Below, piece after piece: positions 3,457-32,303 of a DNA stretch of 36,252 nt (position 1 is the stretch's first letter; each line of letters opens with the position of its first letter). This DNA is from an archaeon (GTDB taxonomy: Archaea; Asgardarchaeota; Heimdallarchaeia; Hodarchaeales; S146-22). The stretch lies in NCBI GenBank assembly GCA_024276395.1, contig JAJRXH010000754.1, positions 1-36,252 on the forward strand, read 5' to 3'. Under the pieces are notes generated by a model, which was not told the DNA's origin, searched no databases, and saw only the letters and a list, made by a program, of their open reading frames with translations. Made by a program: the position numbers and the translations under genes.

Positions 3457-4869
3457 ATGTCTCATCAAAAAGCAATGGCAATCATCCAACAAAATCCTTT
3501 CAGTCGCTACATTTCTCGAGCAGACATGCCAGATGTGATTGATCTCCCACGTCCACGCCTAGAAGCCGAGGAACGAATTCGCCGATTAGTAGAAATGACT
3601 CGACAGACAAAAATACCTAAAGTACTCCCCATACTAGGTGAAGCAGGCCTTGGAAAGACCCATTTTTATTGGACTTTGCATTCACGACTCTCTGATGTGC
3701 TACTAGTATATGTACCCCCACCGACTACACCAAATAGCATCATGGCCAATTTTTACTTTTCTATCATCCGTGCGCATGGCAAGTTTCTCCTCAAGAACGC
3801 TGCTGAACAAGTTGTTAGCCGATACGGATCCATTGAGAATGCCCTTCATAGTTATGCTGGTAGTTGTGCAAATATGATTGAAGCCTTGTTCGTGTTGCAA
3901 ACAGATCCTTCCTTGAGCAAGTATGCTCTAAGATGGTTAACTGGATTAGAAATTGATCAAGATTCACTAAAGATCAGCAAGACCATAATGGATGACGAAG
4001 GTCTCGCATTAGAAGGCATCAAGGTTCTACTGCAAGAGGCGCCCGTGCCCATCGTTTTTTTTGTTGACGAACTAGAATCATTATTCATCTCAATGGGACA
4101 AGAAGCCGAGCTGCAATTCCTCGAAAGCATCAAGCGATTGGTGAATGAAGTCCCAAATTTCGTGTTAGTACTCTCCTGCATTACCAGCCTATGGGATCGA
4201 ATCTTGGAGCTTTCAAGCACCGCTTTTCAATCCCGATTAGAACCCCCCGTGGTGCTCAAGCGATTCACGAGACAAGATCTTGCTCAATATGCTGCGCTCA
4301 TCCTTCAAAAATTTTGGACGAGCGTGAACCTTGAACCAGAAGCCCAAAACCCTTATTGGCCCTTGGACAATGCCGACATCGAGGCTAGTTATGCCTATTC
4401 CCATGGTAATCCACGCGAAGCCATCAAGTACCTGCAAAACCGGCTTGAAGAGAAAAAGTTAGATATGCTCAAGGAATTCATTCACCAAGACAATTCATAT
4501 CGTACCAAGATTGAGTTTGCACGAGAAATTGCCAATCGTATCAAGCAGACCTTCCCCAATCTCAATCTAGGGGTGTTCACGCAGAAATCCTCCATCTTTG
4601 TTCTCCTCGCAAGAGAACATCTCCGATTACTCATGGTCATCCCCCCAGATGCAGCTGCCAGTAAAAAAGAAATCACGGAGACCTGGGCACAAGTGGAAGA
4701 CGCACTGGATCGCCAGTTATATCAAAAAGTTCTGCTCATTCATCCTTCTCAAAAAGTACTCTCTCTCCAGCCTCCAACCTTAGAGAATGATCAAAGAATT
4801 CTCATCATGAACGACAAGAACGTGGATTCTGTCATTGATTCATTGCTCCAATTCTTTCAAAGTTCATGA
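3457..4869 (+). CDS. P-loop NTPase of the ORC/Cdc6-like / archaeal-ATPase AAA+ type with an uncharacterised C-terminal domain
   Basis: N-terminal NPF motif, Walker A GEAGLGKTH and Walker B IVFFVDELESL. The GNPREAIKYL helix is typical of ORC/Cdc6-like AAA+ lids. The ~130 C-terminal residues have no recognisable motif. Confidence 0.65.
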   Translation: MSHQKAMAIIQQNPFSRYISRADMPDVIDLPRPRLEAEERIRRLVEMTRQTKIPKVLPILGEAGLGKTHFYWTLHSRLSDVLLVYVPPPTTPNSIMANFYFSIIRAHGKFLLKNAAEQVVSRYGSIENALHSYAGSCANMIEALFVLQTDPSLSKYALRWLTGLEIDQDSLKISKTIMDDEGLALEGIKVLLQEAPVPIVFFVDELESLFISMGQEAELQFLESIKRLVNEVPNFVLVLSCITSLWDRILELSSTAFQSRLEPPVVLKRFTRQDLAQYAALILQKFWTSVNLEPEAQNPYWPLDNADIEASYAYSHGNPREAIKYLQNRLEEKKLDMLKEFIHQDNSYRTKIEFAREIANRIKQTFPNLNLGVFTQKSSIFVLLAREHLRLLMVIPPDAAASKKEITETWAQVEDALDRQLYQKVLLIHPSQKVLSLQPPTLENDQRILIMNDKNVDSVIDSLLQFFQSS

Positions 4870-5648: not shown

Positions 5649-6770
5649 ATGAAAAGAAAACTCCTAATAATAGGAGCGACGGGATTTGTAGGAAGGCATT
5701 TTGCTGACGAAATGGCTAAAAGTAATGAGAAATACTGGCATCTCGTTCTCAACATCCCTCCGGAACATCCGTCACGACAGGCATTCATCAATGCTTCAGA
5801 AAAAGAAGGCAATTTTTCCGTCGCTTGGGCTGACATTGAAGATTATTATGAATTGAGGGACATCACGAGAGACGTGAAAGCCTGCATCAATTTTTCTCGA
5901 ATACCTTGGAACTTGAAGCCAGAGAGAAAAGCTAGAATCGACTACGAAAATACGGTTGATAACATCTTCCAAGCTTGTTTAGGTAATGGCGTTCAAAAAA
6001 TAATACACGTCACGTGTGCGCTCGTTTTTGGTCCCACGAATCAAAGAAGAAAGTCGTCCATAAATGATCAAATACCCCGACAGCTAGGTTCGGTTTCTCG
6101 TTCACTACCACGATTCATCAAGGCCCTCGAAAGTGAATTTCATCACCTACAGCAATACGTCGTGGAACGACTCTTCCCCATTAACGTGGTCTATCTTCCA
6201 TTTCTATTTGGGCTGGGAGAAAACCGCATCATCGGCGAATTGATGATTGACTACTTGCTAAATGAAGAACCAGTGCTACAATTTCTCGTTCAAAGAAAAA
6301 ATAAGGGAAAAAATAGAATCAACCTCTTACACGTGTCGGAAGCGGTGTCAGCTTGCAAGCACGTACTCAGTGAATCATATCCCTCTCGCCAATACTTAAT
6401 CGCTGGAGAGGATATCACTTTACAAGAACTCCTAGAAGCTTGGAGAGACGCTGGATTCTCTAGAATGGACATCGAACCTGACAAGCTCATTCAAGCACTT
6501 GACCAATTGAAGTTCCATTGGATGAACAAATTCTTGATAAAAAAACGCTTCACCTTTTTGTTCAAAACAACACGTCAACAATTAAAGATCAAGAAAGAAA
6601 ACAAGCAATTATTGAATTTATTAAACTATGATTGGAGTTTTACTCCCATCAATTGGCATGGTGAAGTCAAGAACACCATTGAAAAGACCATTTCAACTCT
6701 CAGAGCCTTTGAAAGAGAAATACTCAGGGTTGTTGAAGAAGGTGAAAAAGCTCAGAATCATCCAAACTAA
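5649..6770 (+). CDS. NAD(P)-binding Rossmann protein, extended/atypical SDR (epimerase/dehydratase-like)
   Basis: The N-terminal LLIIGATGFVGRH is a TGxxGxxG dinucleotide motif and IIHVTCALVFG is SDR-like. I could not find a clear catalytic YxxxK, so it may be an atypical SDR. Confidence 0.6.
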   Translation: MKRKLLIIGATGFVGRHFADEMAKSNEKYWHLVLNIPPEHPSRQAFINASEKEGNFSVAWADIEDYYELRDITRDVKACINFSRIPWNLKPERKARIDYENTVDNIFQACLGNGVQKIIHVTCALVFGPTNQRRKSSINDQIPRQLGSVSRSLPRFIKALESEFHHLQQYVVERLFPINVVYLPFLFGLGENRIIGELMIDYLLNEEPVLQFLVQRKNKGKNRINLLHVSEAVSACKHVLSESYPSRQYLIAGEDITLQELLEAWRDAGFSRMDIEPDKLIQALDQLKFHWMNKFLIKKRFTFLFKTTRQQLKIKKENKQLLNLLNYDWSFTPINWHGEVKNTIEKTISTLRAFEREILRVVEEGEKAQNHPN

Positions 6771-6789
6771 CTACTACTCAACTGTCCAC

Positions 6790-7851
6790 GTGTTTGGCAA
6801 CTTTACCTGGGATTCATTTTCACGAGAAAATACTGACGAAAAATCACTAGGAGGTCCACCCCGCTTTCAGGCTCCCTTGCTAGTAAAACTTGGCTATCAA
6901 CCGTGCCTTCATACACGAATCACGAGAGCGCAGTTTCAGCAATTTCAGATTCTGATGCGTCAGTTCATTAGTAAGAAAGAAAAGATGATAAGCCCATTCG
7001 AAACAGAACATTTGATTTTTACATCCAAAGCTACCATATTCAAGCATATATATGTCGAAAGTGGCGCAAGAAAGAGCTCTCTCCTTTCTAATGCCGGTCA
7101 CATCCCACTCACCCAATTAGGGACACGACACTTTAAACAAACCACGAGAAAAAAACATGTAGCCATCATCATAAGCCCCGTGTTCTATGAATTATTACCA
7201 AATGAAATCATTTCCCTCTCAAAAAAGACTGACATTCCTCTTTATCTTGATCCTCAAGGATTTCTTAGAAAAATTAACCCCAATACATCTCAAGTCGTGG
7301 GACATCGTTTTTGGAACCTAGAACTCTTTAATTCCGTTGATGTCATCAAGATCTCTGAAGAAGAAATGATGTGTTTATGCCCTCCAACGATCACGGAAGG
7401 ACTGTTAAAAGAATGGAACGCCTCAACAATTCATAAAATGATCTTGAAAGATCTTCAGAAAAGGAATCACGGAAAGATTCAATGGCAAAATCTGCGACCA
7501 AAAATGATCATCGTCACGAAAGGAGCTAAGGGTGCCGAACTAAGCATGACGCTCCACCAGAAAGGGAGCCAACAGCCCTCCTTCAGGCTATATTCATCTC
7601 CATCCTTCCCCACGAAAGTAAAAAATCCTACCGGTGCTGGAGATGCATTCCTGGTTGGATTCATCCATGGCTGGCATATCAGCAAGAACATCGAGTCGTC
7701 CCTTGCCCTTGCCAACGCCATGGCCTCCTTTCAAATTTCAGAACCAGAAATATTGTTTTCTAGCGAAGGCCACGAAGAAATAGAAAGAAGAATGAATTGG
7801 ATTCATGACAAGATTATCATAGATTTCCCCCTGGACAATTCCTCCCTTTAG
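6790..7851 (+). CDS. PfkB-family carbohydrate/nucleoside kinase
   Basis: IIVTKGAKGAEL and the PfkB signature NPTGAGDAFLVGFIHGW. The longest ORF starts at ATG 6628 but overlaps the upstream gene by 143 nt. The in-frame GTG at 6790, just before FGNFTWD, is the more plausible start but remains uncertain. Confidence 0.65.
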   Translation: MFGNFTWDSFSRENTDEKSLGGPPRFQAPLLVKLGYQPCLHTRITRAQFQQFQILMRQFISKKEKMISPFETEHLIFTSKATIFKHIYVESGARKSSLLSNAGHIPLTQLGTRHFKQTTRKKHVAIIISPVFYELLPNEIISLSKKTDIPLYLDPQGFLRKINPNTSQVVGHRFWNLELFNSVDVIKISEEEMMCLCPPTITEGLLKEWNASTIHKMILKDLQKRNHGKIQWQNLRPKMIIVTKGAKGAELSMTLHQKGSQQPSFRLYSSPSFPTKVKNPTGAGDAFLVGFIHGWHISKNIESSLALANAMASFQISEPEILFSSEGHEEIERRMNWIHDKIIIDFPLDNSSL

Positions 7852-8011
7852 GGCAAGGAGAACATCAATTTTCAAGAAATATCCTTGTCCTCCTGAAAAA
7901 TGATGAAAACTGGACGATAATGTACTAGACTAACGACAAGAATCACGTGAGTCTCACAGAAAAAATGGAAAGATGACTAATTGATGAATGATCATTAGTA
8001 GACTGTTGTTG

Positions 8012-8662
8012 TTAATAGAAAAAGGCTCTCAACTCTGGATCTTGTTGCAATAATTCACAAACTTGAAGGCCCAGGGCAGTAAGCTGCCACCCACCACTCT
8101 CACTCCGTTCGACGAGACCTATTTCTAGCAGAGAGGTACTATACTTTCCTGACTTGATGTGGCTCCGAATGGTATCCAGCCCCACTCCTAAAATCTTGCT
8201 AAGTTTCTTGTATCCGACAGAGTCCTTGTATAATTCAATTAGAATCCGTTTTTTTGTTCTTCCCATCCGCTTTACAATCTCTTCGGGAGTCTTTGGGATG
8301 TTCCTATTTCTTGATGGCACCCCATCAGAATTCACATTCCTTGAAGATACCATGGTTCCTCGGCCATCATTCGGCTCCATCCGACCATTTCGAACTCGTG
8401 ACGATGAGGAAGAAGAGACATGATGATGTTCCTTTCGTCTTTTTCGATCGCGATGTCGTCTCGCTGGAACTCCGTTAGAAGATCGGGAAGATCGAAATGA
8501 AGACGAAAAACGACGACGAGGCTTCTCGTTCCCAAAAGAGAGTACATCACGCGATGTCGTCCATCCACGCCGACTTTTTCCAGAATTACGAGATTGTTTC
8601 TTCCCACGAAAATTTTGGTTTTGAGACGTTTTTTCTCCTTTTTCCTTATCATCTTCAGACAT
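8012..8662 (-). CDS. Protein with ~130-aa Arg/Ser/Lys-rich low-complexity N-terminus and C-terminal winged HTH
   Basis: N-terminus SRRGWTTSRD...RRRFSSSFRSSRSSNGVPARRHRDRKRRKEHHHVSSSSSSRVRNG. C-terminus KRILIELYKDSVGYKKLSKILGVGLDTIRSHIK...GLVERSESGGWQLTALG is a wHTH. Confidence 0.6.
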   Translation of the reverse strand: MSEDDKEKGEKTSQNQNFRGKKQSRNSGKSRRGWTTSRDVLSFGNEKPRRRFSSSFRSSRSSNGVPARRHRDRKRRKEHHHVSSSSSSRVRNGRMEPNDGRGTMVSSRNVNSDGVPSRNRNIPKTPEEIVKRMGRTKKRILIELYKDSVGYKKLSKILGVGLDTIRSHIKSGKYSTSLLEIGLVERSESGGWQLTALGLQVCELLQQDPELRAFFY

Positions 8663-8792: not shown

Positions 8793-9092
8793 CTAACGAA
8801 TTAACTCAACTCGCTTGGCTCTGGGGCGGCTTCGTGCCCATTGTTTACCACAAGTCTCACACTTTAACCGTAGATCAACTCGTTTTGTAGTTTTTGAAGT
8901 TCGACTCCGCTGGCTGATGGGACGTTTTGAATACCGACCCTTGTTTCCATATCCCTTCGTATGTCGTTTCTTCCGTCGTTGACCCTTGCTCCTACCGCCA
9001 CCCCGTTGCCGTGTTTTTTCAATGGAAACTTTATGCGTAGTATGTGATCGACATTTACGGCAATATGTCCTCATTTTTGCTGGAATCTTCAT
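8793..9092 (-). CDS. rpl44e: Ribosomal protein eL42 (L44e)
   Basis: MKIPAKMRTYCRKCRSHTTHKVSIEK...GYGNKGRYSKRP...RVDLRLKCETCGK is the characteristic L44e zinc-ribbon protein. I chose the MKIP start; the ORF track extends 14 codons further to 9134. Confidence 0.9.
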   Translation of the reverse strand: MKIPAKMRTYCRKCRSHTTHKVSIEKTRQRGGGRSKGQRRKKRHTKGYGNKGRYSKRPISQRSRTSKTTKRVDLRLKCETCGKQWARSRPRAKRVELIR

Positions 9093-9196
9093 GCAACACA
9101 CTTCCCCACATCGTGCTTCTTCTAGCGGTCTCAACTAAAAAGATTATCTTCGACATCCATCCAACCACCACTTTTAAAATATGTTGTGCTTCAAGA

Positions 9197-9208
9197 ATTT
9201 TTTTAAAA
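9197..9208 (+). promoter_or_regulatory. TATA-box-like element upstream of the JAMM gene
   Basis: atttttttaaaa lies about 25-35 nt upstream of ATG 9233, spacing that fits a leaderless or short-leader archaeal transcript. Confidence 0.35.
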
Positions 9209-9232
9209 CAGGTAACCATCTCATCACCTGAA

Positions 9233-10255
9233 ATGAACGGCATCATCCACATGAAGGCGAATGCTTACAAGAAATTCCTAGAATTCGCCATGAAACACGC
9301 ACATCCAAAATTGCCACGCTCCCAATGGCAAGAAGTCCTAGGAGTGCTAGTAGGTAGATTTACGGAAGACCATATTGTCATCATTACTGACGTCATCCCT
9401 CTTGCTGTAGGGTCTGGATATCACGTTGAAGTTCACGACTACACGAAAATCTTCTCCGTTCTTCCACCAGAACGAATGGAAAGAGGAGAATTCATCGTTG
9501 GATGGATTCACACGCATCCCGGCCTGGGGTTATTCCTCTCAAGCACCGACGTCCACACGCAATCTCTATATCAAAAACTCGACTCACGAAGCGTTGCCAT
9601 CGTGTGCGATCCCACGAAAATCTCACCTTCATATCCAGGAATGAAAGCCTTTAGGATAAAAACTGTAAACAACTTGATGACCTCTTCATTACAAGAAATA
9701 CCCCTCATCATCACGGAAATGGAAGAAAAAGATTTCACTACCATTCACCAACATATCGCTGACCAGCTGCTAAGAAAGAAAATGATCCCAATCATCACGA
9801 CACTTCCACCACGTGAAGCAACAAGAAGGCTGTACTTGTCTCCAGATGAACTCTTGAGAACCGTGGTCATCCATAACTGGGGTGAAGAAAGCACGATTAC
9901 TCTTCAATGGATTTGTCCACATCCCAAAAAGGACCTAGAAATCAACGTGAAATTGACTCCCAACGATTCAATGCCACTTTCTTTTCCAGAAAAAGATATC
10001 AACTCCCAACATTCGATCGATCTTGGTGCCACCCCTACTGATTTTGCTACCTCCGTTAAGGAAGATTTCTTGACGAGTTTCACGGAAATACACTTGAAAG
10101 TGCAAACTCCTCCACCCAATGAATGGCCGCCAAGATTATTGCTTCCAGTCATCCCGCTAGCAACCTGGACACTGCCTAATGAAATGATCAAGAATTTGCA
10201 AATCATCATCACCAAGGGAAGCTGCTTCACCTATCCCCCCCTTTTGGTCACATGA
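9233..10255 (+). CDS. JAB1/MPN/Mov34 (JAMM, MPN+) metalloprotease with ~200-aa uncharacterised C-terminal extension
   Basis: Upstream Glu in QEVLGVLVGR and an exact JAMM motif HTHPGLGLFLSSTD (HxHx7Sx2D). I chose ATG 9233 (MNGIIHMKANAY). The longer track ORF from 9044 overlaps the divergent eL42 gene. Confidence 0.8.
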   Translation: MNGIIHMKANAYKKFLEFAMKHAHPKLPRSQWQEVLGVLVGRFTEDHIVIITDVIPLAVGSGYHVEVHDYTKIFSVLPPERMERGEFIVGWIHTHPGLGLFLSSTDVHTQSLYQKLDSRSVAIVCDPTKISPSYPGMKAFRIKTVNNLMTSSLQEIPLIITEMEEKDFTTIHQHIADQLLRKKMIPIITTLPPREATRRLYLSPDELLRTVVIHNWGEESTITLQWICPHPKKDLEINVKLTPNDSMPLSFPEKDINSQHSIDLGATPTDFATSVKEDFLTSFTEIHLKVQTPPPNEWPPRLLLPVIPLATWTLPNEMIKNLQIIITKGSCFTYPPLLVT

Positions 10256-17458: not shown

Positions 17459-19900
17459 ATGGCAAAGTTTAAGGTAGAAGAAGCCGTTGAAATGATGAAA
17501 AAACTCGATTACGTACGTAATCTTGGTATCATCGCACATATTGACCATGGCAAGTCTACACTCTCTGATTCACTCCTTGCCAGCAGTGGTCTACTTTCTG
17601 AAGACATTGCCGGAATGGCACGTGCCACCGATACTCGTGAAGACGAGCAAGAACGTGGTATCACCATCAAGACTACTGGTATTAGCCTTGTCCACGAATA
17701 TGAAGGGAATACTTACATCATCAACTTGCAAGATACCCCAGGACACGTTGACTTCTCTGGCGAGGTAACATCTGCCCTAAGAGTTGTTGATGGTGCCCTC
17801 GTGGTGGTAGATGCTGTCGAAGGTGTTATGGTACAAACTGAAACAGTAACAAGACAGGCACTAATGGAATACGTTCGACCAGTTCTGATGATTAACAAGG
17901 TCGATCGCCTCATCACGGAAATGAAACTCCCCCCAGAAGAAGCCTATGAACGTTTCAAGCAAATCATCCGAGATTTTAACATTCTCATTGATACTTATGC
18001 TCCTCCAGAATTCAAGCAAAAATGGCGTGTTGATCCCCGAGAAGGTACCGTGGCATTTGGATCTGCCTTCCACCGATTCGGTGTAACTGTTCCTATGCTC
18101 GCACGAGTATGGGCAGAAAAAACTGGCAAGAACCCACAAACACTCGTCAAAGGGCTTTGGCAAAAGAAAAACTTCGTCCAAGGAGTACTGAATCCCCTCT
18201 ATCAGATTTATGAAGCGGCTTTCAACAAGGACATCGAATTCCTCAAGAAAGTGACCAAGCAACTCGGAATCCGTCTCACGGAAGATGATTACCGTCTTAA
18301 CGAAAAAGAACTTGCCAAGAAAGTTCTCTCTCAATGGATGCCCGTCGAGGTGGCAGTTCTCGACATGGTTTGTAAGCACTTACCCTCACCGAAAGAAGCA
18401 CAAAAATACCGCATTCCAGCCATTTGGGAAGGAGACATTGAAAGCGATGTTGGTAAATCAATGATTAATGCCGACAAGGATGGCCCTCTCATGATTGTTA
18501 TCTCCAAGATGATTCCCATGAGGGCCAAACAAATCGTTGCCATGGGACGCATTTTCTCAGGAACGGTGAGATCTGGTCACAAGGTAAACGTCCTCATGCC
18601 TGGATATGTTCCAGGTACTGGTGACAAAGACCGAAGATTCGGCGCAAACATTCAGATGGCCGCCATATTGATGGGAAAAGATACCGAACGCGTTGAAGAA
18701 CTGATTGCGGGAAACATCGTGGCCCTCTACGGCCTCCGAGGAGCCGTGGCCTCAGCCACCATCACCGATCTCGATGACGTGATGCCCTTCAAGGCACTGA
18801 CTTTTGCCGTTGAACCAGTGGTTCGTGTTGCTCTTGAACCTGAAAAGCCCTCTGACCTACCCAAGCTGGCTGATGGTCTTCGGTTAATGCAACTCATCGA
18901 TCCATCACTTCATGCTGAAATTAATGAAGAAACTGGTGAATACATTCTTGCTGGCACTGGAGAATTGCACATCGAAATCGCTGTCAAGGACTTGCAAGAT
19001 CTCCAACGCATCAAAGTCCGACAATCGCAACCCATTGTCGTCTTTCGAGAATCTGTTGAAGGTACCTCTGAATTCCCCGCCCTTGCCAAGAGTCCTAACA
19101 AGCACAATCGTATCTGGATGATTGCTGAACCACTTGACGAAGAGTCCATCCAGCTTATTGAAAGGGGTGAAGTCAGTCAATACATGGATCGCAAGCAGCT
19201 AGCACGTGTCCTCAGGGAAAAAGCCAACTGGAATACTGATGAAGGACGCAATGTTTGGGCCTTTGGACCCACTGATAACGAGCCCAATGTCCTCATTGAC
19301 GCTACCAAGGGTGTACAATACCTCCGTGAAGTAAAAGATTACATTAATCAAGGATTCCGATGGGCTGCCAAGGAAGGACCCCTATCTGGAGAACCATTCT
19401 ATGGCATCAAATTCAAGATAACAGATGTGCAATTGCATGAAGATCCAGTTCACCGTGGCGCGGGCCAGATTATGCCGACTGCCAGACGAGCGTGCTTTGG
19501 ATCAATGCTTCTTGCCAAACCGATCCTCTTGGAACCCATTTATCGAGTGGAAGTCCAAGTTCCCGAAACGTATCTTGGTGGTGTTTACAAGGTCATTACC
19601 AAGCGTCGCGGTAATATCATAGATACCAAGCGTCGCGAGGGCACACCCATCCAAATTGTCATTGGTGAAGTTCCTGTTGCCGAATCATTTGGTATTGTAG
19701 CTGAATTGCGTTCCGAGACCAGTGGATCGGCATTCACTCAGATGATTTTCAGTCATTGGGCAAAAGTTCCTGGAGATCCAATGAAACCAGCATCTGAAGG
19801 CGGTGGTCTTGCTCGAGAGTACGTTGAACAAGTCCGTAAGCGAAAGGGCTATCCTAGCATGACCCCGCCCAAACCAGAGGATTATTATGACAAACTTTAG
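17459..19900 (+). CDS. fusA: Translation elongation factor 2 (eukaryote-like, 813 aa)
   Basis: G1 [9 protein letters not shown], G3 DTPGH, G4 NKVD and diphthamide loop [14 protein letters not shown]. Long blocks match eEF2 as I recall it: [17 protein letters not shown] and the C-terminal EDYYDKL. Confidence 0.95.
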   Translation: [813 protein letters not shown]

Positions 19901-23421: not shown

Positions 23422-26400
23422 TCAAATACCTTTTCTCATAGCAACGGCCGTGACAGCACCACCTGCAATCAAAAGAATCAAGCCAACACCCATACCTGCA
23501 GTAAAGGAAATGGATTGCAAGTTCCTTGCGCCATACACGGTATCTCGAAAATCATTGGCAAGATCCTCTGGAATTTCACCACCTTCTTCGACCCAAAGAA
23601 TGGGCATTATGGTCTTCGTGATGTTAGGATAAAATACATCCGTTGCATCAGTAAGAATGTTGATTTGAAGTCTTTTAGCGGCATGCATCACGACACCGGT
23701 TGTCGGTTCAACATCTAGGAAGGTATCATGCCTTTGCTCATCTGGAACAAGTCCTGAAACCTTCGTTAGCCATGACTGATCTGCGTCCAAGAAGTGAGGC
23801 TTGCTCAAGAACAAAGGTATTCCTACGGAAGAAGTCATATTGGCAAAGCCACGGATACTTTGATAATAATCGGGATTGATGGCCAGCACATCATCTGCAA
23901 GCACGAATCGATACAGCGTGATGTCATGAAGGGAAACCTCTTCCTTGAAGACAATCTTGACTGCTCTGAGCAAGTCACCGACCCAGGTAATCAAGGTTTC
24001 TTCTTTCTTGATTTCTGGATGGAATTGGGTGCCATCTGTACCCTGAACTTTCTCTGGTTTTTTCCATACGGTAATGGTATCGTTGTCGTGCCACTTGATG
24101 TAAGTATTTACGAGTGATATGTTTCCCTTGCCAGTATAGAAAGTACTAGTAGGTTCATCAAGTGCATCAGCAACCGAGGTCTGGTTGGTGAAGAAGTGAT
24201 TTTCTGCTTGAGCAAGATCATCTTGGAAAATAAGGGCTAATAATGGATCTGTATATGACCAAAGCCATTGATTCACTGTCCTAGTGCTGATGAGTCCTCC
24301 TCCAACTTCAAATACAGACTTGAGCACGTCAGTAACGAATGTAGCTATGAGATAATTAAGATAAGCACCAACAAGCGCTGCGTTAGATTGATCAAGGCCC
24401 CACAATGACTGAATGATGGAGAAGTTACCATTAGCAAGCAAAGTAAGAAATATACCAACTTCCGTGCTATTAGTGAAGCCATGAGAACCTTCCAAGAGAG
24501 TTTTGATGAAAGTCACGTTCTCAAAAGTAGCTGTGGTCCCTTGCACGTGATTTATCCACGCCCAGTACTCTGGATAGCCTGACAAGGTCGGATCAAAGTC
24601 TTTCACGCTCAATCCAGAGGTAACATTAGGCGATCCCCAATGCAAATAGGCGAGATCTACAAGTTCCGTTACACCAGCAGATGCAAACAACGCTAACATT
24701 CCGGGAATCACGAAAGTTTGATTAAAGTAAGCCAAGTATTCAGCCATCAATGAAGATTCCGTTTGACTGAGTCCCCACAATGACTGAATGGTAGAGAAAT
24801 TGCCGTTAGCAAGTAAGGTGAGGAACACGCCCACCTCCGTGCCATTAAAGAATCCGTGCGTTCCATTGAGTAATTCCTTGATGAAAGTCACGTTCTCAAA
24901 GGCAGCCGTGGTCCCTTGCACGCGTCTTGCCCATGCCCAGTACTCTGGATAGCCTGACAAGGTCGGATCAAGATCTTTCACGCTCAATCCAGAGGTAACA
25001 TTTGGTGCTCCCCATTGCAAGTAAGCAAGATCTGACAATTCTGTCACACCAAAAGAGGCAAATTGTTGAATGAGCAACGGAGGAACAACGTGATCCTTGA
25101 TGTTAGGAGTACCTGCGAAAAGCCAATTGAGAATTAAACTCAGCTGGAAATCTGTCAGATTGAAGGTTGTTCTCAGGAGATTCCGTGCGTTTGAATCACC
25201 CAATGATGCATTGATCCATATAAAGATGCCAGTATCATTTACGAAAGAACTCGCATTGGTAGGATCAAACAAAGCAATCGCTTCCGCAAGCGTGATGTTT
25301 GTCGAATCTGGAGTAGAAGCCAATGAAAGATCATCAATTCCATCTCCGGTGAGATCCACTCCACCTTCGATTCCCGTGCCATTAGTCCATTGAATGAGGA
25401 AGAAATACTCTGCTAGCCCAGCCGTCGTGAGATGAAGATTCTGAAAGAGGCTTGGGATTAACGGCTTTGAAACTTGTGCAAACACGTGAGCAGTGAGATA
25501 ATCGGCCAAAACACCAAGTTGCGTGTTATTCAATCCATAGACTGCTCCAGCTGTTGATAGATCTTGTTGGATCAAGGTAAGGAAACTAATGATACCGCTT
25601 CCGCTCTTTAAATCAGTAAGCCAGCCAGGAACTCCAAAAAGATCATTTCCGTACAGAACCTTTTCAATGGAAGAATTCGTAAAACTATAGGATGTTCCAG
25701 TATAATTGGCCACTCCTTTTAGTACAATGGGGCCAGCAATGGACTGTTGAAAGGCGGTACTATTGAAAAATAAGTTCCGAGCCATTGTGGTACCGTACAC
25801 CTGAGTAAGACCCTCAATGACCTTGTTAATCATTTGTGCTGCGACGGTTGCATTGATCACGATTGGCAACATTGCTGGGACCACTTCATTAAAGAGATGA
25901 CCAACGATGTAGTTGGCAAGGACGTCTAGCTGAGTTACATTAATCAAGTAACCAGCTGCGAGCTGTGTTTTGTCAATAGATTCATTCTGATAGGCTAACA
26001 AGAATCCCAAAAGTCCCGTGCCATTATCGGGATTATTCAACCATCCGGGTAACCCCAGGGTAGCATTTCCGTTGAGGATGCGATTGATGGCTTGAGCACT
26101 AAAGTTATAATCTGCTCCGGTAAAATTAGCCACGCTCTTGAATGGTAGTGATTGATAAGTGACATTATTGAACAAAGTAGCGTTGTCTGTCACGAATTTT
26201 ACGTTACTAAGAAGTATGGAGACAGCTATGGAAGCATTCACGATGGCTTGAACCTGAGAAATCACTTCAGTCTTGATTCCTGTCAGCACTTTAGGAATGG
26301 CTTGAAGAACTACTCCTGGTACGAATTCTGATTTCAAGTTGTCGATGCTCTGTTGAAGTGCTGTTCCCATGGCAGTGATAATGACTTTTTTCAAGAAATC

Positions 26401-26928
26401 TCCCTTAAAACCATCAAGAATCTGCTGCAAGGTTGGACCAACAAAGCCGACCATCAAGGCTTGTTCTGATCCGGCTTTTGCTAGTACACCTTGATAGGCC
26501 GGGTTAATGTTGATGATCTTGTCAGAAAGACTACCACTGGAAAGGGAAGGCTCAAACTTATAGTAGGTATAAGTTCTGAAAGTTACTTTTTGATTATTGT
26601 CTGCAAAAGTCACGTTGAGCTTACGATCATATTGTTGGAAGACATAAGGACCTAATTCCTCAAAAACTGGTTTGTCTCCATTGATATATCCGCCGGGATT
26701 AGTAAGATTCCACAAGTAAAATTTCTTGTATTTTGGAACATCACCAGGATCTTCGTTAGTAATCCAATCTTGATAATTTGGATCTTGTTTACCATCGATC
26801 ACCAAGGTATCTTCGATTCCTTTATTGAGCTGATTCTTGATCTCATTGTTAACAATGAGGCCACCACCAATGGACCCCAAACCTAATAATAATAGAACAA
26901 CACCAGCAATTAACTGCATTCTAACCAA
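23422..26928 (-). CDS. CD36 / LIMP-2 / SR-B scavenger-receptor family (PF01130-like) membrane glycoprotein with ~700-aa repeat-containing insertion
   Basis: It has N- and C-terminal TM helices. Conserved CD36 blocks include FYLWNLTNP...[52 protein letters not shown]...[26 protein letters not shown] and [8 protein letters not shown]. TTG 26928 lies 6 nt after AAGGTGA; the alternative ATG is at 26919. Confidence 0.85.
   Translation of the reverse strand: [1168 protein letters not shown]
24313..25062 (-). repeat. Two tandem ~375-bp (125-aa) intragenic repeat units inside the CD36-like gene
   Basis: Residues 623-747 and 748-872 are near-identical (FAS.[36 protein letters not shown]...[35 protein letters not shown]). 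The DNA shares identical runs of up to about 36 bp, for example cccagtactctggatagcctgacaaggtcggatcaa. Confidence 0.9.
25444..26142 (-). repeat. Two more diverged ~140-aa intragenic repeat modules of the CD36-like gene
   Basis: [34 protein letters not shown]...[26 protein letters not shown] aligns with [34 protein letters not shown]...[26 protein letters not shown]. Confidence 0.75.
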
Positions 26929-29058: not shown

Positions 29059-29499
29059 TCACGGTTCTTGAGACACATTTGGATATTCATATGGAACAAA
29101 TTTATATCCATAACGAAGCACTGAATCATCAGATGCAGCGCCGTACTTTCTAAAGGCATACCGAACCTTCATTCCAGTTTTCACTCGTGAAAAAGGAACC
29201 CCTACTATTTGGCCAATTACCCGATGACCATCTTCAAGTTCAATAAGTGCAACAATGTAGGGAACTTCATCCTCACGATGCTCTTGAGCCATGTGTACCT
29301 CTGAAAAACTAATGACCTTGCCCACGCGACTAACGGGCCTCTCGCCTCGTGTTTTGACACCACAGTCAAGACACAAAGGACGTGGTGGGAAATACACGCT
29401 ACCACATTCTGGACATTCACGTCCAGAAAACCGATAACGGTGCCCAATCGTTCTCCAATATAAAGGAATAGAATCTTCTACCATTGATTTCACCACCAT
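29059..29499 (-). CDS. DUF35 OB-fold/zinc-ribbon protein (scaffold of the archaeal thiolase/HMG-CoA synthase complex)
   Basis: Zinc ribbon CPECGSVYFPPRPLCLDCG followed by an OB-fold segment (GKVISFSEVH...YIVALIELEDG.RVIGQIV). Confidence 0.85.
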   Translation of the reverse strand: MVVKSMVEDSIPLYWRTIGHRYRFSGRECPECGSVYFPPRPLCLDCGVKTRGERPVSRVGKVISFSEVHMAQEHREDEVPYIVALIELEDGHRVIGQIVGVPFSRVKTGMKVRYAFRKYGAASDDSVLRYGYKFVPYEYPNVSQEP

Positions 29500-29545
29500 T
29501 TAATAATAACCATCTTAATTATATTAGATAAATAATAAGTCACTA

Positions 29546-30754
29546 TCACTCATCAATAGTCAAAACGTTAACCAAAGCTGTCGCTCCAGTTCCTCCTAGT
29601 GACTGTGCCACACCCACCTTTGCATCTTTTATCTGTCTCTTACCAGCTTTCCCCAGCAATTGCAGGCATAACTCCACGATCTGCCCAACACCTGTAGCAC
29701 CAAGAGGATGTCCTTTGGCTTTAAGACCTCCTGAAGGACTAACTGGCAACGAGCCATTTAAAGAAGTTTCACCTTCGAATGTGGCTAATGCTGCCTTTCC
29801 AGGTTGATAAAAGCCCATTGACTCCAAAGCAATGAGTTCAGCAATGCTGAATGAGTCATGCGCCTCGATTACATCCACTTGTTCTCTTGGGTTGGTAATG
29901 CCCGCTTGCTTAAATGCCATTTTAGCTGCTTTCTTAACGGCTTCAAAAGTGGTCAGTGATTCCCGTGAATGCAATGCTAGATAGTCTTGTCCTTGTCCAG
30001 ATCCTTTTATCCACACGGGACTATCAGAATACTCTGGAATCTTCTCATCCGCTGCGAGTATGACCACGCTAGCTCCATCCGTAACTGGAGAGCAATCTAG
30101 AAGTCCTAAAGGATCTGCCACGATCTGTGATTTCAAAACTTGCTCTCGTGTAAATGCTCTCTTGAAATGGGCATTCGGGTTCAAGGTGGCATTAAAATGA
30201 TTTTTTTCCGGGACTGCGGATAGGTGTTCCTTATTCACTCCAAATTCTTCGAAGTACGCTCTCGCCATCATTGCAAATGCTGATGTATAAGTCAAGCCAG
30301 GCTCTACTTCCCAATCATGATCAAGCATTGTATTTGCCAAGATACTGGTCACTCGTGGATTACTTGTTTGATCCCACATCTTTTCTACTCCCACGACCAT
30401 GGCCGTATCAATCATTCCCGACTTCACGGCCAAATAAGCAGCTCTTAACGCTGCAGCACCTGAGGCGTCCGCAGCCTCTATCCGAAAACTAGGCACGTTC
30501 AAGAGGCCAGCTGCATCTGCAACCAACGCATTTACGTGTCCTTGTCCCACGAACATCTCCGCAGCAGCGTTACCGACAAACAAGGCACCAACATCGCCTT
30601 TATCAAAGCCACCTTTTTGAACGGAATCAAAAGCCACTTCTATCGCTAAAGAAGCTAACTCTCGCAACGATAAATCCCAATGTTCACCATAAGGGATTTC
30701 ACCTAGTCCAATGATTCCAACTTCATTCTTGCGAGTTGACATGATCATCACCAA
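29546..30754 (-). CDS. Archaeal-type thiolase-fold protein (acetoacetyl-CoA thiolase family) with Asp in place of the nucleophilic Cys
   Basis: The full length resembles archaeal thiolases (GIIGLGEIPYGEHW, VGVEKM, CSPVTDGASVVIL, NPSGGLKAKGHPLGATG). The conserved EAACASG motif reads EAADASG. The start may be ATG 30742 (MSTRK). Confidence 0.8.
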   Translation of the reverse strand: MVMIMSTRKNEVGIIGLGEIPYGEHWDLSLRELASLAIEVAFDSVQKGGFDKGDVGALFVGNAAAEMFVGQGHVNALVADAAGLLNVPSFRIEAADASGAAALRAAYLAVKSGMIDTAMVVGVEKMWDQTSNPRVTSILANTMLDHDWEVEPGLTYTSAFAMMARAYFEEFGVNKEHLSAVPEKNHFNATLNPNAHFKRAFTREQVLKSQIVADPLGLLDCSPVTDGASVVILAADEKIPEYSDSPVWIKGSGQGQDYLALHSRESLTTFEAVKKAAKMAFKQAGITNPREQVDVIEAHDSFSIAELIALESMGFYQPGKAALATFEGETSLNGSLPVSPSGGLKAKGHPLGATGVGQIVELCLQLLGKAGKRQIKDAKVGVAQSLGGTGATALVNVLTIDE

Positions 30755-30915
30755 CTTTAACCCAACTAAAGGTTAATGTCACTTATATTTAACTCACGAT
30801 ACCTATCATAATCTTCATTCAATAGAATTTGGTCCATTCACAAGCTTAACTGAATGCTACAATCTTTAGTTAACTCCATTCTCACGAAAATAATAAATGA
30901 ACCTTGCCATCTCAT

Positions 30916-30949
30916 TTCCACACCATCTGGTATTCCACACCATCTGGTA
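30916..30949. repeat. Perfect 17-bp tandem duplication
   Basis: ttccacaccatctggta occurs twice. Confidence 0.95.
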
Positions 30950-30990
30950 CTGGAAAGCCCTTGTTCAACCTAATCTTCCTCTTTTCATTA

Positions 30991-31016
30991 TACATCGCCG
31001 CATTACATCGCCGCAT
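30991..31016. repeat. Perfect 13-bp tandem duplication
   Basis: tacatcgccgcat occurs twice. Confidence 0.9.
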
Positions 31017-31214
31017 CGCAAAGCATTTTCTACGTGAATCTCCAGTGTCCTCAACATTTACCTAATCAATAATGCTTTGGTAGATTATCGTTCAAGATCG
31101 TGGCTCAAATGACAAGTCACTCATTATCTAAAAATAAAAAATGCCAAAGAATTGACGAATTGATTGTCCTCTGACATCAAAGAACTTCAATGACAACATT
31201 CTTTCTCTAACTTG

Positions 31215-32303
31215 CTACTCTCGTTCATGCTCTACGATTTTTCCTCTAATCTTCGCATATTCAGCATATGTAATGTTTTTCTTGTTGTTAATGTATTCAT
31301 CCACGGTTGGAGCTCTATCACGACGATCTTCAATTTCATCAGTAATTACAAAGCTGAAACTATCACTGCCTGCACCAGAACCAAAACTTGTCACTAGGAT
31401 ACGATCACCCTCCTTGGCCACATCCAGTACCCTTGCTAAACCCACCATTGATGCTCCAGAATAAGTATTACCAATGTATCTCACGGCCAGGGAGCGTTCG
31501 ACCTTCTCCAGTGGAAAACCTAACATCTTGGCAGCAGCAATCGGAAACTTCCCATTAGGCTGATGAAATACAACATAATCAACATCTTGGACAGTTAATC
31601 CCAGTCTCTCCATTAGTCCTCGTGTTGCTGAAACGACATGCTTGAAATATGCAGGTTTTCCAGTAAAACGTGAGCCATGACGAGGAAACATCTGACCAGG
31701 TCTTCTAAAGAAATCTGGAGTATCAGTCGTAAATGAATAAGTTCCTTCCAATTCAGCAATCACATGATCCGTTCCTATTAAGAAGGCCGCCCCCCCAGCC
31801 CCTGCCGTGTATTCAAGGGCATCACCAGGTCGGCCCTGAGAACAATCTGCACCTATGGCCATTCCATACCTGATCTGACCAGATACCGTCATCCCAGCTA
31901 TCATTTGCATTCCAGCAGTGCCAGCCTTGCAAGCAAATTCGAGATCTGCACACGTACAATGCGGGGCCGAACCGATAGCCTCAGCAACTGTTACTGCTGT
32001 GGGCTTAACAGCATAGGGATGAGACTCAGACCCCACATAAATGGCACCCACATCTTGAGGACTAATGAAAGGAACTTGTTTCATTGCATTCAAGGCAGCC
32101 TCGACAGAGATGGTAATGGTATCTTCATCAATATCTGGAACAGATTTCTCAATCACGTTGAGACCTTTACTGAGACTTTTACCATCTTCATTCCAGACAC
32201 GAGCTATCTCTTCAACAGACACTCGCAAGCGTGGAATGTACACGCCATAAGCAACAATACCAACTGGCATTTCAAAATCACTTCCCATTCTTTCCTTTTT
32301 CAT
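31215..32303 (-). CDS. Hydroxymethylglutaryl-CoA synthase (archaeal type)
   Basis: [35 protein letters not shown] (Glu), [12 protein letters not shown] (Cys), FHQPNGKF (His) and GNTYSGA. It is near-colinear with methanogen HMGCS as I recall it. Confidence 0.9.

Follow-up and report, generated by a model that had tools for sequence, protein, structure and literature searches.

An all-helical module array inside the apex of a CD36 family protein from an Asgard archaeon

What occupies the apex of a CD36 family protein whose homology to CD36 is interrupted there by some 700 residues, and how does an archaeon come to encode it? These questions are raised by one gene on contig JAJRXH010000754.1 of assembly GCA_024276395.1, of which positions 1 to 36,252 of the forward strand were analysed (36,252 nucleotides, called the window below). 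Phagocytosis, the biogenesis of lysosomes and the uptake of lipids are all linked to the lipid-tunnel receptors of the CD36/LIMP-2/SR-B family (SR-B, scavenger receptor class B), a family that has been treated as eukaryote-specific. We find that the insertion holds a helical stalk and five related modules, called crown modules here, predicted to be all-alpha. CD36 proteins of protists and of further Asgard archaea carry this module family at the corresponding site, and it also occurs in Asgard proteins that have no CD36 core. The parts of the gene are as follows, in the order of the encoded protein after the gene itself.

23422..26928, minus strand: whole gene of the CD36/SR-B family protein, 1168 residues, a single open reading frame (ORF) with a TTG start and without cysteine
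26848..26916, minus strand: N-terminal transmembrane (TM) helix, residues ~5-27, from a hydropathy scan (hydrophobic stretch 1-28) and the AlphaFold2 (AF2) model (helix 2-42)
26452..26763, minus strand: N-terminal part of the CD36 core, residues 56-159, including the equivalent of apex helix a4, NPAYQGVLAKAG (142-153); from the LIMP-2 alignment, jackhmmer and a predicted local distance difference test score (pLDDT) >90
26146..26451, minus strand: ascending helical stalk or linker, residues 160-261, with diverged 24-residue repeats; AF2 helices 155-185 and 210-235, pLDDT 35-70
25864..26145, minus strand: module A1, residues 262-355, with 6 N-x-S/T sequons; from self-BLAST and the A-module hidden Markov model (HMM), E 1e-32
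25453..25722, minus strand: module A2, residues 403-492, 40% identical to A1; from self-BLAST and the A-module HMM, E 1e-28
25120..25410, minus strand: module C, residues 507-603; from the C-profile, E 1e-30; carries a DxDxDG-like loop, GGVDLTGDGIDD
24712..25086, minus strand: module B1, residues 615-739; from self-BLAST, 76% to B2
24337..24711, minus strand: module B2, residues 740-864, tandem duplicate of B1; its final helix continues into the a5 equivalent
24301..24363, minus strand: equivalent of apex helix a5, residues 856-876, YLNYLIATFVTDVLKSVFEVG (also YLNYLIATFVTDVLKSVFEV), descending into the CD36 core; corresponds to LIMP-2 FLREIIEAMLKAY and to AF2 helix 847-877
23539..24300, minus strand: C-terminal part of the CD36 core, residues 877-1130; from Pfam, the LIMP-2 alignment, jackhmmer, pLDDT >90 and the Foldseek match 5lgd_A
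23434..23520, minus strand: C-terminal TM helix, residues ~1137-1165, from the hydropathy scan and AF2 helix 1121-1167

CD36 is the single Pfam family matched by the 1168-residue protein (PF01130, E 2.1e-94, 317.1 bits against a cut-off of 26.5), and the match falls into two stretches, the second of which covers residues 861-1157. Among the sequences of solved structures, LIMP-2 (E 8e-43) and CD36 (E 1.6e-40) were found to be the best matches, both of them split at a4/a5. In the LIMP-2 alignment, residues 60-134 of the query correspond to 31-104 of the chain and residues 864-1129 to 127-403, while a local jackhmmer search delimits the conserved core to residues 56-159 and 877-1130. The full-length AF2 model has a mean pLDDT of 79 and a predicted template modelling score (pTM) of 0.58, with values above 90 in the CD36 core. 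When this model was compared with the PDB using Foldseek, the core was seen to have the asymmetric beta-barrel fold of LIMP-2 and CD36, these matches spanning E 1e-19 to 1e-12 (5lgd_A, E 8.2e-19; 4f7b, E ~1e-17; TM-score on target 0.57-0.62). An ectodomain with one TM helix on either side is the operational definition of an SR-B (Boohar et al. 2023, Genome Biol Evol, PMC10715195), and the window protein has this arrangement. As to the start codon, GGTGA lies 7 nucleotides upstream of the TTG, and the resulting N-terminus MVRMQ resembles the MVKVQ of homolog P0004 (common pattern MVxxQ). A look-up of contigs encoding the protein yielded no identical entry, whichever start codon was used.

It should be noted that there are 0 cysteines in the 1168 residues, and the conserved ectodomain disulfides are thus lacking. 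Animal CD36 proteins depend on such disulfides. In the survey cited above, however, they are a metazoan trait and not a family-wide one (Boohar et al. 2023, table S4, PMC10715195). Nearly all Heimdall-type relatives are likewise cysteine-free (P0001-P0004, P0006, P0111, P0115, P0119), and a second Asgard subgroup, described below, has 2-9 cysteines.

The gap in the homology can be located closely. The segment directly before it, NPAYQGVLAKAG, resembles the LIMP-2 segment NIPVLTVIEW, and the segment directly after it, FVTDVLKSVFEV, aligns with LIMP-2 FLREIIEAMLKAY. These two LIMP-2 segments are the apex helices a4 and a5. The apex of the family comprises helices a4, a5 and a7, and the LIMP-2 alignment shows that sequence equivalents of a4 (142-153) and a5 (856-876) and of a TVNQWLW segment are kept in the window protein. 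Because sequence equivalents of a4 and a5 are retained on both flanks, the insertion appears to lie inside the apex bundle and not to replace it. A reading of the DNA made from the letters only (the sequence-only reading) had described a split CD36 homology with a ~700-residue insertion at 24298-26397, that is, residues 178-877, where the helical bundle would be. The split and the extent are borne out by the two Pfam stretches and the jackhmmer core, and the apex position is right as well; the bundle's absence is not supported. In the mammalian proteins CD36 and LIMP-2 the apex helices are where ligand is bound (Boohar et al. 2023, PMC10715195), which makes this position the ligand-sensing one.

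In the AF2 model the ~700 inserted residues are entirely alpha-helical, and long helices lead into the insertion (155-185) and out of it (847-877). The mammalian proteins (LIMP-2, also called SCARB2, and CD36; structures 4f7b, 4q4b, 5lgd) share with the window protein the beta-barrel ectodomain, sequence homology on both sides of the apex and the two TM helices, at 26-29% identity. They differ in having a three-helix apex with ~20 residues between a4 and a5 in place of ~700, and in having conserved disulfides.

Right behind a4, at 26233-26451 (residues ~160-232), there are 24-residue tandem helical repeats similar to FVGPTLQQILDGFKGDFLKKVIIT. In the window protein one copy matches the repeat profile significantly (residues 162-179); the Hodarchaeales homolog P0001 has seven that are near-perfect (residues 127-294), and P0004 has four. 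These stalk repeats are a second, independent element of variable copy number. The hydrophobic stretches 222-246, 349-367 and 739-757 within the insertion were also considered as TM helices and rejected, because the two halves of CD36 must share one side of the membrane and sequons run throughout the region.

Turning to the modules themselves, internal repeats were found by BLAST with masked segments. Residues 249-355 match 389-492 at 37-40% identity (E 1e-21), residues 615-752 match 740-877 at 74-77% identity (E 6e-60), and a weak link connects the A and B types (411-478 with 672-732, E 1e-3). Profile-profile comparison with hhalign relates B to C with a probability of 96.2% (E 2.5e-9, 100 columns) and A to B with 92.2% (E 5.9e-7, 65 columns). 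A local profile iteration over 18 CD36 homologs recovered the B modules, two in the query and 1-6 in the others, and aligned the A modules with B-profile positions 40-110; the C-profile matches the B modules in register over their full length. B1 and B2 score at E 1e-80 against the seed profile, and C and A1/A2 against profiles of their own. These comparisons show that the five modules are homologous to one another and that the copy number rose by tandem duplication, recent in the case of B1/B2 and older in that of A1/A2. The sequence-only reading had counted at least four, probably five, related modules, and five is the number obtained; the internal similarity that it called for is significant. 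Both of its pairs, two diverged copies and two near-identical ones, are real, although near-identity is too strong a term for B1 and B2, whose protein identity is 76% and whose DNA, repeating with a period of 375 nucleotides, is 76-85% identical.

The C module is present in all 18 of the first-round CD36 homologs, two of which (P0005 and P0017) later turned out to be likely eukaryotic, and none of the Asgard CD36 homologs examined lacks this module type. Its DxDxDG-like loop lies at 25303-25338 of the window (residues 531-542, GGVDLTGDGIDD). The consensus of this loop is GGxDINGDGxxPDGFE in the Heimdall-type proteins and GVDIDGREPYNYPG in the second Asgard subgroup, and the loop is absent from the B modules. 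The loop may be a calcium-binding site.

The profile of the family has the pattern YxQW...PEF/DG...LL/LFxxxN...FL/W...WGL/FNLxxT[EQ]...YL/WL, which the modules of the window match significantly, and invariant residues are few in the B-type alignment (W25, E48, Y117). Structure prediction of the insert, proposed earlier as a check, gave helices throughout. With B1 alone and an alignment of 56 module sequences, AF2 yields eight helices at a pLDDT of 96.7 and a pTM of 0.88, and a single module is accordingly modelled as a compact all-alpha domain, predicted to fold autonomously. A Foldseek search of the B1 model against the PDB and BFVD gave no neighbour at E < 1, and the insertion of the full-length model is likewise unmatched in the PDB. 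Neither the insertion nor the module matches Pfam, NCBIfam or the PDB sequences, even at E <= 10. On present evidence, which comes from models, the module is apparently a new all-alpha fold.

Among 1.84 billion representative proteins, a profile made from 30 B and C modules (alignment A4) matches 289 at E <= 1e-3, of which 152 reach E <= 1e-10. When the 143 new top matches were sorted with local CD36-core profiles, about half were found to have the N- and C-terminal CD36 cores with modules between them, and 72 to have no CD36 core. The latter include 39 complete proteins, which hold 1-6 modules between two terminal TM helices. Coreless proteins with names come from Lokiarchaeota, Thorarchaeota and Promethearchaeota, with one partial Kariarchaeaceae record, on contigs of up to 314 kb. 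In these coreless proteins an A module stands directly before the C or B modules, which is the order of the insertion in the window. Examples are P0117 (Lokiarchaeota), P0131 (Thorarchaeota) and P0118 (Promethearchaeota), all annotated as "hypothetical protein"; they resemble the window protein in the A-then-C/B order, in sequon enrichment and in the TM helix at each end, and differ from it in lacking the CD36 beta-barrel and in having 1-6 modules.

Other Asgard CD36 homologs carry the same modules at the a4/a5 site in 1 to 7 copies. Since the modules occur both there and in coreless Asgard proteins, the insertion is a nested copy of an independent, unannotated ectodomain family. That it is a repeat array invented within this one protein is not supported. 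A known independent domain family fused by misassembly had been named as what would overturn the sequence-only reading: the family is indeed independent, but it is not a known one, as Pfam, NCBIfam, the PDB and Foldseek leave it unmatched, and it has not been joined by misassembly (see below).

Among 185,579 prokaryote species genomes (one per species), loci homologous to the CD36 gene were found only in Asgard metagenome-assembled genomes (MAGs), labelled Heimdallarchaeota, Promethearchaeota, Hermodarchaeota or uncultured archaeon. The nearest proteins carry database names from Hodarchaeales, Heimdallarchaeota ("CD36 family protein") and Kariarchaeaceae. In one Promethearchaeota MAG (locus L005; 4194-5906, minus strand, and 6001-8265, plus strand) a standalone A-C-C module gene without a Pfam match is the divergent neighbour of a CD36-like gene. 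Another MAG (locus L008; 2863-5310 and 5824-8526) has two tandem CD36-like paralogs with nearly identical N-terminal ~45 residues.

Eukaryotes have module-bearing CD36 proteins as well. By name they belong to Mastigella eilhardi, Pelomyxa schiedti ("lysosomal integral membrane glycoprotein"), Platysulcus tardus, Muranothrix gubernata, transcripts of MMETSP, and Aphanomyces cochlioides, whose "scavenger receptor class B" has 2253 residues. Two further proteins were considered as archaeal: P0005 was rejected as such, having AATAAA and poly(A) on a contig of transcript length, and P0017 is unlikely to be archaeal, lying on a single-gene contig of 2.4 kb and clustering with eukaryotes.

For Dictyostelium, Phytophthora and Tetrahymena, sequences from the supplement of Boohar et al. 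2023 were compared with a module profile made from Asgard sequences only (Z = 1e5). In Dictyostelium this profile detects LmpB at E 7e-18, where residues 224-305 form a C module and residues 331-435 a B module, and the partial ectodomain of LmpA at E 5.5e-8, where a C module lies at ectodomain residues 197-291. Dictyostelium discoideum LmpA, LmpB and LmpC (755-782 residues) share the TM-CD36-TM topology and a Pfam CD36 match split in two, and LmpA and LmpB also have the apex insertion with crown modules between a4 and a5. LmpB has two modules (C and B), whereas the window protein has five (A1, A2, C, B1, B2) and a stalk; the Lmp proteins differ further in being eukaryotic, in having cysteines and in a core ~30% identical to that of the window protein. 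Works to which the 2023 survey refers describe them as phagosomal and lysosomal membrane proteins.

Apex expansion as a phenomenon is already known. The stretch from motif M4 to motif M6, which corresponds to helices a4/a5, is where the expansions of non-metazoan SR-Bs lie; they consist of multiple alpha-helices without homology to known domains, in ectodomains of up to 2294 residues, and the proposal was that a three-helix apex is ancestral and was expanded many times independently (Boohar et al. 2023, PMC10715195). The same paper describes the family in eukaryotes only, and in its text "archaea", "prokaryot", "repeat" and "glycosylat" never occur. The window protein resembles these eukaryotic SR-Bs in its all-alpha a4/a5 expansion without a known domain, and differs in being encoded by an archaeon. 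In contrast to the published independent origins, the expansions found in Asgard archaea, in Amoebozoa, in some stramenopiles, in one oomycete and in one ciliate share one module family, which also exists outside CD36. In the literature searched, no paper was found linking CD36 with Asgard archaea, nor were archaeal members, the homology of the Asgard and eukaryotic expansions, the standalone family or the fold.

We next consider the sequons and the topology. The protein has exactly 37 N-x-S/T sequons, as against the ~37, most of them in the insertion, that had been counted before; 30 of the 37 lie within residues 179-876. In 2000 shuffles of the whole protein 11.2 +/- 3.0 sequons were obtained, with a maximum of 22. 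The density is 4.2 per 100 residues in the insertion compared to 1.9 in the core, and in most Heimdall-type relatives it is also higher in the insertion than in the core. Four sequon positions are kept between B1 and B2 (module positions 29, 65, 81 and 96), and several standalone proteins have 2-4 times as many sequons as their shuffles. As there is a TM helix at each end, the whole ectodomain would lie outside the cell, and we infer that the crown is extracellular. The hallmarks of archaeal S-layer or PGF-CTERM glycoproteins, namely a signal peptide, a sorting or anchor motif at the C-terminus and known S-layer domains, were not seen: in Pfam and NCBIfam only CD36 is matched, and the topology is TM-ectodomain-TM.

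Taken jointly, these observations are probably best explained by an Asgard CD36 hairpin membrane protein in which a five-module crown, nested at a4/a5, forms an extracellular, glycosylated tip for ligand capture. The hairpin would consist of two terminal TM helices and, outside the cell, a large beta-barrel domain of the LIMP-2/CD36 fold, and between a4 and a5 a helical stalk would be followed by A1, A2, C, B1 and B2, all of one compact all-alpha family. Such a crown would extend and diversify the ligand-capturing tip over the CD36 lipid tunnel, displaying a variable glycosylated surface toward particles, partner cells or hydrophobic cargo, and changes in module copy number could tune its height and specificity. 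A role of the insertion in recognition or adhesion is a plausible prediction.

Some points weigh against this explanation. The evidence for N-glycosylation of the crown, which we infer, consists of the sequons. Comparison of loci L001, L007, L008, L009 and L010 revealed no conserved operon or gene neighbourhood that would hint at a pathway. The stalk and the linkers between modules are weakly modelled (pLDDT 35-60 at 184-273, 487-499 and 738-782). Finally, Phytophthora infestans SR-B_1 and Tetrahymena SR-B_2 do not match the Asgard-only module profile, so judged by profile matches not every eukaryotic apex expansion consists of crown modules.

Several other explanations have to be weighed. An assembly chimera, or a collapsed or expanded repeat, could be suspected because short-read unitigs of related strains break near the B1/B2 repeat. 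However, the insertion is in frame within a single ORF, B1 and B2 are only 76-85% identical in DNA, and a ~97% identical strain has contigs, from two independent public runs, that cross the B2|B1 junction with no alternative joints seen. This architecture moreover recurs in eukaryote transcripts and in over 25 independent Asgard proteins. With the junction crossed by independent contigs and the architecture recurring in independent archaeal MAGs and eukaryote transcripts, misassembly is unlikely, and we give an artefact almost no credence. A biological alternative, in keeping with the published model of independent apex expansions, derives the insertion from the protein's own a4/a5 helices, expanded internally in this lineage alone and unrelated to the expansions of other lineages. 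The last helix of each B module does resemble a5 (802-877 matches 677-752, the a5 equivalent included), the published analysis argued for independent origins (PMC10715195), and the expansions of P. infestans and Tetrahymena do not match the modules. Against this, CD36 proteins of Amoebozoa, stramenopiles, a ciliate and other Asgard lineages match the modules at E 1e-10 to 1e-40; the 72 proteins without a CD36 core have them too, and a profile built from Asgard sequences detects LmpA and LmpB. An expansion of the protein's own helices is for these reasons very improbable.

The main functional rival is that the crown is mainly a structural glycocalyx or spacer and not a binding surface. The standalone A-C(n) proteins would then be the coat of wall-less Asgard cells, and the mouth of the CD36 tunnel would reach through this coat or join it. 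Among the top matches, module-only proteins anchored by two TM helices are about as common as CD36 fusions and similarly enriched in sequons; the copy number ranges over 1-7, as that of a spacer would, and the modules have few invariant residues. On the other hand, the site of the insertion coincides exactly with the ligand-binding helices of mammalian CD36 and LIMP-2 (PMC10715195), a4 and a5 being retained, and a spacer is compatible with a simultaneous binding role. As the main function, we consider a spacer rather unlikely, though a serious contender. The main evolutionary rival is that Heimdall-type Asgard archaea acquired the whole gene, with its crown, from a eukaryote by horizontal transfer, in which case the crown would be a eukaryotic invention and silent on the archaeal ancestry of CD36. 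Protists have many and diverse CD36 proteins with modules, the family was formerly described in eukaryotes only (PMC10715195), and the deep branching of the trees presented below is poorly supported. Yet the Asgard sequences group together in these trees and span the labels Heimdall-, Hod-, Kari-, Hermod- and Promethearchaeota; the Heimdall-type proteins are cysteine-free and the gene stands amid ordinary archaeal genes; and the named standalone module proteins are all Asgard (Loki, Thor, Promethearchaeota), on long prokaryotic contigs, which favours an Asgard origin of the module. Transfer from a eukaryote is for us the unlikely course, without being a negligible one.

The trees were built by neighbour-joining (NJ) on the C-terminal core, and bootstraps were run with capped distances. 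In the NJ tree the Asgard sequences form one group, an exact clade, with a cysteine-free subgroup of Heimdall type that has B modules and a second subgroup with one C module and an acidic helical region. The exact Asgard clade is recovered in 17-30% of the bootstraps, a group with at least 90% overlap in ~70%, and the second Asgard subgroup in 89%. The insertion-less sequences (animals and some protists) cluster in the tree from BLOSUM62 distances and are not an exact bipartition under Kimura distances, being recovered in 6-12% of the bootstraps. The deep nodes are weakly supported. The proteins of the second subgroup (P0007-P0012, P0014-P0016) have 700-970 residues, with a very acidic helical segment (LEDLVEFMVDAMP..., DFIVDLIFFWDVLHLFD...) before the single C module.

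The same domain is found at the same site in protist CD36 proteins and standalone in Asgard surface proteins, and the tip of the receptor therefore has a history that archaea and eukaryotes share. How this history ran is a more tentative matter. One possibility, which we put forward as somewhat short of even, is that the crowned CD36 is an Asgard-derived eukaryotic signature protein: the module would have arisen in Asgard archaea in standalone surface glycoproteins anchored at both ends, and would have entered an archaeal lipid-tunnel protein of CD36 type at its a4/a5 apex, ahead of the last eukaryotic common ancestor; the ancestor would have inherited the crowned form, and the bare three-helix apex of animal CD36, LIMP-2 and SR-BI would be a secondary loss. 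If true, this would reverse the published view of an ancestral three-helix apex with independent expansions, and a receptor linked to lipid uptake and to phagosomes and lysosomes would belong to the archaeal side of eukaryogenesis, its crown still to be seen in LmpA, LmpB and many protists.

Apart from this scenario, bona fide CD36 family members exist in several Asgard lineages, and the "lineage-specific" apex expansions of many protist members are one conserved domain family, apparently of a new fold, and not independent inventions. The crown domain also leads a life of its own in Asgard surface proteins. This offers a handle on the evolution of the receptor's ligand-sensing tip and on the surface decoration of the archaea closest to eukaryotes, and it gives the work on Dictyostelium LmpA and LmpB a defined domain to delete or swap.

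In the Foldseek search with the full-length model, the next matches after CD36 and LIMP-2 are to LmcA of Mycobacterium smegmatis (7shw and 7n3v, E 1e-3 to 9e-3, probability ~1.0). This model-based match hints at a remote bacterial relative of the CD36 barrel.

The contig is densely coded, and the neighbours of the CD36 gene in the window are archaeal and Asgard-like. They include an "ATPase domain predominantly from Archaea" protein, elongation factor 2 (EF-2), a thiolase/DUF35/HMG-CoA-synthase-like operon, a Roadblock/LC7 protein and a JAB/MPN protein. The following may be called eukaryote-flavoured Asgard genes.

3457-4869, plus strand: AAA/NACHT-like ATPase
9044-10255, plus strand: JAB1/MPN protease-like protein
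17459-19900, plus strand: EF-2-type GTPase, 813 residues
27476-27913, minus strand: Roadblock/LC7 protein

These four genes have no obvious functional tie to the CD36 gene. The set of DUF35/ChsH2 OB-fold, thiolase and HMG-CoA-synthase-like genes lies at 29059-32303, ~2 kb upstream of the CD36 gene and, like it, on the minus strand, with no sign of co-regulation seen; sets of this kind are typical of the archaeal acetoacetyl-CoA/HMG-CoA complex.

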